From contig OZ241349.1 in assembly GCA_965200565.1 (NCBI GenBank), forward strand, positions 485,724 to 549,723: 64,000 nucleotides of DNA, in the 5' to 3' direction. Positions 37,368 to 39,118 of the stretch are shown here, piece after piece. The notes below the pieces were generated by a model. The model worked only from the letters and a program-made list of their open reading frames with translations. It did not search any database and was not told the origin of the DNA. The stretch's first letter is position 1, and the number at the start of each line of letters is the position of its first letter. A program made the translations under genes and the position numbers. The DNA comes from Tepidiformaceae bacterium. Its GTDB lineage: Bacteria; Chloroflexota; Dehalococcoidia; Tepidiformales; Tepidiformaceae.

Positions 37368-38306
37368 ATGGCTCGGAAGAAGGTCACCATCGTTGGCGCC
37401 GGCATGACAGGCGGCGCCATGGCGCAACGGCTCATCGAGCGCGACATCTGCGATGTCGTGCTGCAGGACGACCCGCAGTTCGCGGGCACGATGCACTTCG
37501 GCAAGGCGCTCGACGAAGCGCAGGCGGCTGCCTGGAGCGGCTTCAGCACCGCCATCAGCGCAACCGACAGCTGGGACGAGACAGCAGACTCCGATGTCGT
37601 CATCGTGACCGCCGGAGCTCCGCGCAAGCCGGGCATGAGCCGCGAAGAGCTGCTCAACAGCAACGCCTCCATCGTCCGCGCGAAGGTCGCCGAAGCGGCG
37701 AAGGCCTCTCCCGGGGCCGTGCTGGTCATCTTCTCCAACCCCATGGACGCGCTGTGCCACGTCGCCCTCGACACGAGCGGTTTCCCGCGTGAGCGCGTCA
37801 TCGGCCAGGGTGGCGCGCTCGACAGCGCCCGCTACCGCCACTTCGTCGCCACCGCAGTGGGTGTCTCGCCCCAGGACGTAGACGGCTACGTCATCGGCGG
37901 GCACACGGACACGACGATGGTGCCGGTGGTTTCGCAGACGCGCGTCGGGGGCGTCCCCCTCACGAGCCTCCTGCCCGCGGACGAGATCGAGTCGGTCGTG
38001 AGCCGCACGATGCGCGGTGGCGCGGAGATCGCCGAACTGATGCGCGTCGGCAGCGCCTACTACGCTCCCTCGGCGGGCACGATTGCGATGGTCACCGCCA
38101 TCCTGCAGGACCAGCGCCGCCTGATGCCCTGCTCGACCCTTCACCAGGGCGAGTACGGCATCGAGGGCGTGTTCTCGGGCACGGTGGTGCAGCTTGGCGA
38201 AGGCGGCATCCAGCGCACCTTCGAGCTGGACCTTTCCGCCGAAGAGCGCGAACGCGTCGTCGCCGCCGCGGACGCAACGAAGGGCCTGGTCGCGCAGCTG
38301 GACTAG
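37368..38306 (+). CDS. mdh: malate dehydrogenase (LDH-like family)
   Basis: KVTIVGAGMTGG NAD motif, AGAPRKPGMSREELL, IGGHTDTTMVP. Start called at ATG 37368. Confidence 0.9.
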   Translation: MARKKVTIVGAGMTGGAMAQRLIERDICDVVLQDDPQFAGTMHFGKALDEAQAAAWSGFSTAISATDSWDETADSDVVIVTAGAPRKPGMSREELLNSNASIVRAKVAEAAKASPGAVLVIFSNPMDALCHVALDTSGFPRERVIGQGGALDSARYRHFVATAVGVSPQDVDGYVIGGHTDTTMVPVVSQTRVGGVPLTSLLPADEIESVVSRTMRGGAEIAELMRVGSAYYAPSAGTIAMVTAILQDQRRLMPCSTLHQGEYGIEGVFSGTVVQLGEGGIQRTFELDLSAEERERVVAAADATKGLVAQLD

Positions 38307-38313
38307 GGGGGCG
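38285..38313. repeat. left copy of a 29-bp perfect direct repeat (last codons and stop of mdh)
   Basis: cctggtcgcgcagctggactaggggggcg, identical to 39090-39118. Confidence 0.95.
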
Positions 38314-39056
38314 GCAGCAGGGAACAAAACGTCGTCGACTTTCTGAAGCAATTCTCCCCCGATGAGTTGGTGGACAAGGGCATACTTCGAGGTGAAACGT
38401 ACCTCTTGAACAGCCTGAGCGTGTCACCTCTCCTCAAGTTGATGGATGAACGGAAGATCACGCAGCTTCATGCGCCTGAACGGAAGTGGTTTGTGGGGGC
38501 TGACGGAAAGTTCGCCAACCCCCTTTCGCGTGAAGCAAAGTCAGGTGACCTAAAGGACCTGGACAATCCTGGAAGCCTGTTCTACATCCAAAACGTCCAT
38601 ATCAATCCGCACTACCGTGGCGGTGAGACCGCAGCCACCGAAGGCGATAATGAGACAGATGGGGCAGAGGGCGAGGGAGATCCATCCGGGCTCAAGTTCG
38701 GGCTGGAGCGCGATCTTCAGGACGCACTTCGCGGGAACATCGCTCAGCTTGAGCCGGGCCTAAAGATCACGGACGGGGGAAAAGAGAACAGGGTTGATGC
38801 GGGTCGAGTAGACATTACCGCTTAAGACAAAGATGGCACATCGGTTGTTATTGAATTCAAGGCGGGCAGAGCCGCACTACCGGCAATGGGACAGATTCTC
38901 TCCTACATGGGAAGCCTGCAGGGTAAAGGGGAGAAGTCTGTAAGAGGCATCTTAATCGCGAACGACTTCCATCCGAATCTGGAGCTCGCGGCCAAAGCCG
39001 TGCCGAACGTCTCTCTGGTGGCCTATTCGTTCGAATTTGCGTTCACAGAGCGCTAG
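38314..39056 (+). pseudogene. decayed NucS/DUF91-like PD-(D/E)xK nuclease-domain gene (no start codon, in-frame TAA)
   Basis: The frame is open from the repeat edge. It reads ...GLERDLQDALRGNIAQLEPGLKITDGGKENRVDAGRVDITA-TAA(38823)-DKDGTSVVIEFKAGRAALPAMGQILSYMGSL...VRGILIANDF... and ends at the TAG at 39054-39056. The G+C content is visibly lower than in the flanks. Confidence 0.6.
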
Positions 39057-39089
39057 CTACTTACGAACCGACCTCTATTCGCTCTCGTT

Positions 39090-39118
39090 CCTGGTCGCGC
39101 AGCTGGACTAGGGGGGCG
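39090..39118. repeat. right copy of the 29-bp perfect direct repeat
   Basis: Identical to 38285-38313; lies 10 nt from the vapC stop. Confidence 0.95.

Follow-up and report, generated by a model that had tools for sequence, protein, structure and literature searches.

What placed a 776-bp, A+T-richer segment between two perfect copies of the end of a housekeeping gene? The question is raised by a stretch of 64,000 nucleotides (nt) from a member of the Tepidiformaceae (Chloroflexota), contig OZ241349.1 of assembly GCA_965200565.1, positions 485,724 to 549,723, referred to below as the window. In it, the 3' end of the malate dehydrogenase gene mdh recurs downstream of a small nuclease-like gene, here called nuc, and just ahead of a decayed vapBC toxin-antitoxin pair, with the argininosuccinate lyase gene argH beyond. 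A preliminary description of this DNA took the repeat for the footprint of an integrase. Comparison of the window malate dehydrogenase (MDH) and its surroundings with about 30 related mdh/argH loci from Tepidiformaceae relatives (labeled L001 etc.) points to another answer, to which we assign a probability of roughly 0.6: the repeat is the scar of integrase-independent stacking of two alleles of a gene-exchange hotspot by host recombination. The elements on which the argument turns lie in the following order.

37368-38306, plus strand: mdh (malate dehydrogenase), intact, 312 amino acids (aa), with Pfam domains Ldh_1_N and Ldh_1_C.
38285-38313, no strand assigned: repeat copy A, the mdh 3' end with its TAG, followed by GGGGGCG.
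38314-38318, plus strand: GCAGC, final 5 nt of the mdh-nuc spacer (12 nt in all), aligning with the GGCAGCC that precedes the nuc start in L020 and L105.
38319-39056, plus strand: nuc pseudogene, 245 codons without a frameshift, with an N-terminal domain that lacks a Pfam match and a NucS_C PD-(D/E)XK nuclease domain.
39061-39089, minus strand: argH-3'-like stub, reading ...R-I-E-V-G-S-stop, its TTA at 39061-39063.
39090-39118, no strand assigned: repeat copy B, an mdh 3'-end stub standing where vapBC-type relatives have the complete mdh end.
40092-41468, minus strand: argH (argininosuccinate lyase), with Pfam domains Lyase_1 and ASL_C2, the other conserved flank of the hotspot.

The duplication itself is just as the preliminary description had reported it. 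The 29-mer CCTGGTCGCGCAGCTGGACTAGGGGGGCG occurs at 38285-38313 and at 39090-39118 with 29 of 29 positions identical (0 mismatches), and a search of the whole 64-kb window that tolerated up to 3 mismatches found no third copy; two matches were seen in none of 100 shuffled controls. Copy A consists of the last 19 coding nt of mdh and its TAG stop, which make up the first 22 nt, and of the 7 nt that follow. The distance from the end of copy B to the stop of the convergent PIN-domain gene vapC is 10 nt, as was likewise given correctly, and upstream of copy B there is no similarity to mdh. Within the 29-mer lies an imperfect dyad, CCTGGTC-N9-GACTAGG; formation of a hairpin or cruciform was considered and rejected, no significant structure being found (z = -0.71).

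The A+T-richness of the insert also holds when computed. In 200-nt windows the G+C content (GC) is 0.53-0.60 within the insert versus 0.69-0.71 in mdh, and among 633 windows of 776 bp laid over the 64 kb the insert is the most deviant on both measures applied: no other window has a GC so low (0.546; mean 0.678, standard deviation 0.029), and none a tetranucleotide distance so large (0.59; mean 0.326, standard deviation 0.04). Nearly all of this belongs to one gene: the insert consists of nuc with 5 nt upstream and 33 nt downstream, and nuc has a GC of 0.547 in the window versus 0.689 for mdh. In every host nuc has a low GC (0.51-0.61, versus 0.69-0.71 for mdh), and the shift is therefore a property of the nuc family rather than a sign of a recent, exotic source.

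Judged from its sequence, nuc is a complete gene, recently disabled (as is probable) by two point changes, and not a shortened leftover. Most of the 421 relatives in the database are 237-250 aa long, the best of them covering 99% of the window frame; AGG at 38319-38321 is aligned with the ATG or GTG start codon of relatives, and a single in-frame TAA interrupts the frame at 38823-38825. The preliminary description was right about a decayed frame that lacks a start codon, and needs correcting in that this frame is not truncated at the repeat edge, the gene being full length; a frame cut at that edge is rejected on the 99% coverage and the aligned start position. Nor does its proposal of a larger island shrunk by internal deletion fit an insert made of one full-length gene and short flanks. 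As a minor point, nuc and mdh share a reading frame, split by the TAG and four sense codons (38304-38321), which is probably a coincidence, with a chance of one in three.

The relatives provide the context in which these features become intelligible. The window mdh is a regular member of its family (NCBIfam PRK06223, score 341 versus a cut-off of 283) with the C-terminus ...ATKGLVAQLD* as in relatives, and the gene order lepA (minus strand), mdh (plus), argH (minus) is conserved across them. The interval between mdh and argH is empty in 10 relatives, both stop codons overlapping on CTAG, and it holds vapC-vapB in 11. At nine loci (L020, L023, L081, L082, L083, L105, L106, L107, and L108) nuc directly follows mdh after a spacer of 11-34 nt; 3' of it there is usually a short ribbon-helix-helix (RHH) antitoxin gene, with a full vapBC pair in L082 and L083. 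The window has nuc together with vapBC. Two expectations of the preliminary description are borne out by these counts, namely that empty sites exist among relatives and that mdh once faced vapC, an arrangement present in the 11 vapBC-type relatives and collinear with the context of copy B. Its view that DNA of foreign composition was added at the 3' end of mdh is likewise supported.

In a tree of lepA, mdh, argH, and downstream sequence these states are interleaved; L022 (vapBC) and L108 (nuc with vapB) differ in state with flanks 99.5% and 97.6% identical, and the close pairs L010/L083 and L006/L106 differ in state as well. Comparison of the empty L014 with L081 shows a clean addition of 993 nt in the CTAG junction, with only AG repeated. 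On these comparisons the mdh/argH interval is a small gene-exchange hotspot in the Tepidiformaceae. Chromosomal hotspots that lack mobile-element genes have been described by Oliveira et al. (2017, PMC5635113) as diversifying by homologous recombination within the core genes that border them, and the present one resembles them in being a fixed interval between core genes with alternative accessory cassettes, in differing in content between near-identical genomes, and in dispensing with an integrase or transposase; the unequal flank identity of L022 and L108 (99.5% versus 97.6%) is compatible with imported tracts. It differs in being very small (0 to about 1.8 kb) and in lying between convergent stop codons that, at an empty site, overlap on CTAG, and the window differs further in presenting a non-reciprocal, stacked product instead of a clean replacement.

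Several details of the hotspot may be recorded alongside. In the empty sites of L001, L002, L004, L009, L014, and L018 (at about 6934-6945) the mdh TAG overlaps the argH stop on the palindrome CTAG, and in L005 (about 6934-6945) there is an equivalent overlap between the stops of vapC and mdh; cassette insertion is so exact that both flanking reading frames retain their length. In L081, L105, L106, L108, and L020, nuc stands in place of vapC and the 3' part of vapB, and an orphan RHH (FitA-like) antitoxin gene of 52-57 aa is left, converging on nuc. With a spacer of only 11-34 nt, nuc is probably cotranscribed with mdh. In L082 a DDE_Tnp_1 (IS4/IS5-like) transposase gene (5736-7280) follows directly on the CTAG that ends nuc, and its sister contig L083 retains only a C-terminal remnant of the transposase (5736-6098); CTAG may be the target of an insertion sequence (IS) in L082.

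Read against these allele types, each side of the window locus is familiar. Copy A, the 12-nt spacer GGGGGCGGCAGC, and nuc are collinear with the nuc-type relatives, one of which (L081) also has a 12-nt spacer; the inserted DNA is thus homologous to an alternative allele of the same locus, with nuc after mdh and both spacer and start aligned. Copy B, a 10-nt spacer, and the vapC stop are collinear with the mdh-vapC junction of vapBC-type relatives. Between the two halves, an argH-like stub would be expected if the left piece was copied from an mdh-nuc-argH allele, and a candidate for it is present. In ungapped matching against 54 argH ends, the segment at 39061-39089 finds its best match in L001/L002/L004 (...R-S-E-V-G-S-stop), stop on stop, with a score reached by 18 of 2000 shuffles, which is moderate support; the window's own argH ends in ...REAITR*, unlike the stub. 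The order at the junction is accordingly permuted, the argH-like stub (39061-39089) preceding the mdh stub (39090-39118), the latter certain and the former moderately supported. By eye, the relatives have no consistent remnant 3' of nuc in common. With both junctions collinear and an argH-like stub present, the locus can be read as two partial alleles in tandem, the left portion of an mdh-nuc-argH type followed by the right portion of an mdh-vapC-vapB-argH type.

Similar products recur at the same site in other lineages. A scan of all loci for duplicated flank ends returned two further cases. In L068, a 74-nt stub of the mdh 3' end, 93% identical and reaching 17 nt past the stop (6883-6956 and 8039-8112), sits between a ParE-type pair with a fragment of an aminoglycoside phosphotransferase (APH) gene and a second, decayed ParE-type pair; the start of the antitoxin gene is also duplicated over 98 nt (7539-7636 and 8613-8710), and the arrangement looks like two stacked alleles. 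In L071, a stub of about 150 nt from the argH 3' end, 94-98% identical, lies between two ParE-type pairs (7473-7621 and 8195-8344), and the C-terminal tail of the functional argH, which is altered, overlaps the beginning of the antitoxin gene. To these may be added the mosaic vapB of the window itself, described below. The stubs thus measure 29 nt on the mdh side in the window, 74 nt on the mdh side in L068, and about 150 nt on the argH side in L071. Stubs that differ from lineage to lineage in both length and side show no fixed core of the attachment-site (att) kind and disagree with a single recombinase working at a single core; the variation fits occasional unequal or illegitimate joins of alleles that are normally exchanged cleanly.

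The history that we infer from the hotspot and its alleles, the collinear junctions, the full-length nuc, and the integrase-free loci examined can be put as follows, the pathway and the assignment of resident and incoming halves being its conditional parts. Alleles of four kinds (empty, vapBC, nuc, and nuc with a short vapB) would pass from genome to genome through homologous recombination within the conserved flanking regions. In the window, a left part with the structure of an mdh-nuc-argH allele (mdh, its spacer of 12 nt, nuc, and roughly 27 nt from the 3' end of an argH gene) would have been joined at 39089/39090 to the right part of an mdh-vapC-vapB-argH allele, starting 22 nt ahead of the mdh stop. 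The 29-mer would then be the mdh 3' end contributed once by each parental allele, or a short homology used in the exchange, rather than an att core. The join could have come about by a homologous crossover in lepA/mdh coupled to an illegitimate join, as in homology-facilitated illegitimate recombination (HFIR), by unequal crossover, or by a single crossover of a recircularized fragment, and neither a dedicated recombinase nor a larger island would be necessary. Decay would have followed, with loss of the nuc start and gain of the TAA, a frameshift in vapC, and a mosaic, frameshifted vapB.

Comparable cases have been described. Stacking of alleles by an HFIR-type process has been proposed for type VI secretion system (T6SS) arrays of Vibrio cholerae (PMC5361080). 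The orphan immunity arrays of that system, and orphan Rhs and contact-dependent inhibition (CDI) 3' modules, are alike in that a module is added and the resident one shifted downstream, that pieces of a conserved neighbor gene are left between modules, and that clean replacement is commoner; the present case differs in that the stubs derive from the housekeeping genes mdh and argH, that the cassettes are a nuclease gene and toxin-antitoxin pairs, and that there is no evident selective reason to retain the displaced module, both modules being in decay. In Escherichia coli conjugation, a single crossover of recircularized fragments duplicates the homologous segment, with duplications of 109-950 bp (PMC3240628). 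There, too, an insert is bracketed by a direct duplication through host recombination alone; the 29-bp repeat of the window differs in length, and the 74 nt of L068 and about 150 nt of L071 fit better.

Several points weigh against stacking of two alleles. A repeat of 29 nt is close to the shortest that RecA-dependent exchange can use, and at 39089/39090 no microhomology can be seen. Identity of the two copies continues through the 7 nt that follow the stop, with sharp edges on both sides, and four close pairs of nuc-type and vapBC-type loci diverge exactly at the stop codon. Because the allele types diverge there, identity of GGGGGCG in two parental alleles needs shared descent or luck; a post-stop GGGG is seen in both nuc-type and vapBC-type alleles, and the L068 stub also runs past the stop, as the window copies do. 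The argH-like stub rests on about 21 nt. Finally, the closest relatives share 85-88% identity with the window in core DNA, and a neighboring fast-evolving gene matches the source genome at 100% and its next-best homologue at only 76%, so that neither parental allele, and no conspecific one, has been seen. All relatives are uniformly 81-89% identical. Exact look-ups of the window MDH and ArgH proteins found no record; L114, a short Logan contig of the same species as the window, ends within lepA.

The same post-stop identity is what keeps a one-step duplication of the target as the main rival. In this account a linear 776-bp fragment of a nuc allele entered at a staggered break, the overhangs of 29 nt being filled in and the ends joined, or it was copied in when replication switched templates and resumed 29 nt back, in either case with no integrase. 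Perfect identity, sharp edges, and the inclusion of 7 noncoding nt would follow directly, both 29-mers being the recipient's own sequence, and no coincidence between alleles would be required; the absence of microhomology at the junctions agrees, and the bounds of the insert, trimmed around one gene and an argH stub, are such as a random mdh-nuc-argH fragment could have. We nevertheless regard it as unlikely. A 29-nt stagger is unusually long, there is no significant hairpin or palindrome to provoke the break (z = -0.71), and the stubs of L068 (74 nt, 93%) and L071 (about 150 nt, 94-98%) are much longer and diverge slightly, which fits recombination between alleles better.

Somewhat less probable again is the explanation offered by the preliminary description, an integrase-carrying island inserted in an att core at the mdh 3' end and later reduced by internal deletion to the nuclease gene. 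It has the perfect direct repeat (29/29) that includes and restores the 3' end of the target gene, the dyad within the 29-mer, and a compositionally foreign insert with empty sites in relatives; the arrangement is not one that all relatives share, 10 of them being empty. The loci examined supply no recombinase. The insert has the nuc frame only; in the window, none of 10 open reading frames (ORFs) scanned against Pfam within about 10 kb of the site belongs to an integrase or recombinase family (3 of the 10 matched no family, and those with Pfam matches are housekeeping genes), and the gene calls for L081-L084 and L105-L109, all of them nuc loci, name no integrase, such calls being available for six of the nine mdh-adjacent nuc loci. 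Nor does a core travel with the element. A duplicated mdh end is absent from all nine other mdh-adjacent nuc loci, where nuc, complete and starting 5 nt from the repeat edge in the window, stands at the same place without repeats; at other loci nuc occurs without the 29-mer, and no mdh-like sequence was found beside it at other chromosomal sites. The stubs at the hotspot vary in length (29, 74, and about 150 nt) and occur on either flank, and the right end of the insert is argH-like.

Sequence searches beyond the loci agree. Neither viral nor metagenome contigs gave an exact match to the 3' 22 nt of the repeat (GCGCAGCTGGACTAGGGGGGCG); for nuc, the search of phages returned no homologue, and plasmid matches are to the nuclease domain only. 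The preliminary description had named a dispersed 29-mer as an argument against integration; with no other copy in the window, and none of the 3' 22 nt in those contigs, dispersal is not observed within that scope, and it is on the other grounds that integrase-mediated insertion loses, a single complete gene, no recombinase at the loci examined, and repeat-free nuc at the same site. Islands and prophages of tyrosine integrases share with the window a repeat that includes a gene's 3' end and stop, a foreign insert, and empty sites; the window differs in that no recombinase is found at the loci examined, the cargo gene travels without the repeat, the inserted DNA is an allele of one gene and native to this site, and the stub varies in length and side. 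Xer/dif-like integration, transposon target duplication, and retro-insertion were also considered and dropped, given a G+C-rich coding site, no terminal inverted repeats or transposase, and nuc lying 11-34 nt from mdh.

A further rival turns on what nuc encodes. Its C-terminal part matches NucS_C (PF01939; E = 1.2e-10, 41.8 bits versus a cut-off of 24). In an AlphaFold model (pLDDT 85) of the nearest intact homologue, a disordered acidic linker connects two domains, and the best fold matches in the PDB are EndoMS/NucS (E = 5e-8), followed by XisH, MspJI, and SfsA nucleases. The PD-(D/E)XK domain thus resembles that of NucS/EndoMS (PDB 5gke, 2vld) both by sequence (E = 6e-8) and by fold (E = 5e-8), with the invariant D, E, and K positions kept. 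It differs in scoring 62 and 33 bits against NCBIfam equivalogs with cut-offs of 216 and 252, over the C-terminal part only, in N-terminal 100 residues that match neither Pfam nor NucS, and in a patchy, accessory occurrence, partly in defense-island-like contexts; nuc is distinct from NucS proper. It matches the nuclease domains of candidate defense systems in PADLOC. Distant homologues occur at a second conserved locus (recG...yggS) and in defense-island-like settings, next to a Type ISP restriction enzyme, helix-turn-helix (HTH) regulators, and IS21; a scan of metagenome contigs with the nuc protein gave only distant matches, to the C-terminal domain. Two contigs, L112 (1713-2535) and L113 (2668-3490), carry the same distant homologue with about 88 nt of identical upstream DNA, adjoining a PDDEXK_4 gene in one and IS21 (rve and IstB) in the other, and the shared stretch marks the edge of a small mobile module.

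Such a gene might be a putative selfish, homing-like cassette that has repeatedly entered the CTAG mdh/argH junction, often displacing vapC, the 29-bp repeat then being the repair product of its own staggered cut. Homing genes follow a cycle of invasion, fixation, and decay, and the degenerated nuc of the window could represent its last stage. The nuclease fold and its structural matches suit this idea, as do alleles that share only 60-70% identity against about 90% for core proteins, the low GC in all hosts, and the presence or absence of the gene at one fixed site between genomes 94-99.5% identical in their flanks. If true, Chloroflexota would possess a homing system that is chromosomal, has no intron, and relies on a NucS-type nuclease. 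We consider this very improbable. Because the nuc family occupies at least three kinds of context, with the second conserved locus and the defense-island-like settings among them, a single cognate target is argued against; the PADLOC matches lie with defense nucleases, no other nuc insertion has a duplication, and ordinary flank recombination explains the patchiness (PMC5635113).

The weakest alternative, that assembly concatenated nuc-type and vapBC-type haplotypes of one population, is natural for a metagenome-assembled source whose structure is literally two alleles in tandem, and it can hardly be sustained with stubs of only 29 nt and about 27 nt, an argH stub that differs strongly from the resident argH end (unlike strain-level variation), several inactivating mutations in both cassettes that imply time in place, and analogous stacking in two independently assembled genomes.

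Allele stacking by host recombination is a known kind of process, and current concepts are unchanged by this case. Its value is largely corrective: a 3'-end repeat around an A+T-richer insert is usually read as the work of an integrase, and about 30 loci here point to host recombination. The locus is a neat illustration from nature of how cassettes between convergent housekeeping genes can turn over without an integrase, here in an uncultured family of Chloroflexota, and it draws attention to a family of NucS-like nucleases with a patchy distribution.

The vapBC part of the window, downstream of copy B, comprises the following features.

39129-39526, minus strand: vapC pseudogene (PIN-domain toxin), with a 1-nt deletion near 39306 and two overlapping frames.
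39523-39790, minus strand: vapB', the 3' part of an antitoxin gene, frameshifted, its stop overlapping the vapC start (GTGA), delimited by three-frame comparison with vapB of relatives.
39749-40045, minus strand: vapB2, a 98-aa ORF that represents the 5' portion of another antitoxin allele and is fused to vapB' out of frame.

Repaired for its frameshift, the vapC translation matches PIN with E = 3.5e-14 and is 55-69% identical to vapC of relatives; vapB2 has no significant Pfam match. The antitoxin region as a whole (39523-40045) is a mosaic of two vapB alleles and provides a second allele-to-allele junction in the window. An intact PIN toxin with an adjacent antitoxin is thus lacking in the window, both genes being frameshifted and the antitoxin fused. 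The inactivating changes, which are substitutions and one 1-nt deletion outside a homopolymer, are probably real rather than sequencing errors of a metagenome assembly. Upstream of vapB2, the segment 40046-40094 is conserved in L020 and L081 (ACATTGTAG); on its minus strand there is a -10 box, TACAAT, with a -35-like CTGACA 18 nt upstream that overlaps the argH stop.

Two other compositional islets stand out in the window. A second low-GC islet (about 0.60) at 27537-28216 holds, from the translations only, a probable ParD-like antitoxin (116-aa ORF) and ParE-like toxin (109 aa), and it is flanked by a long ORF read as cytochrome-P450-like (not scanned) and by a radical-SAM (MiaB-like) gene. 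At 21914-22625, minus strand, a patch with a GC of about 0.61 carries tandem paralogous ORFs of 132 and 137 aa, whose DTGA/DTGV motif is reminiscent of retropepsin-like aspartic proteases.

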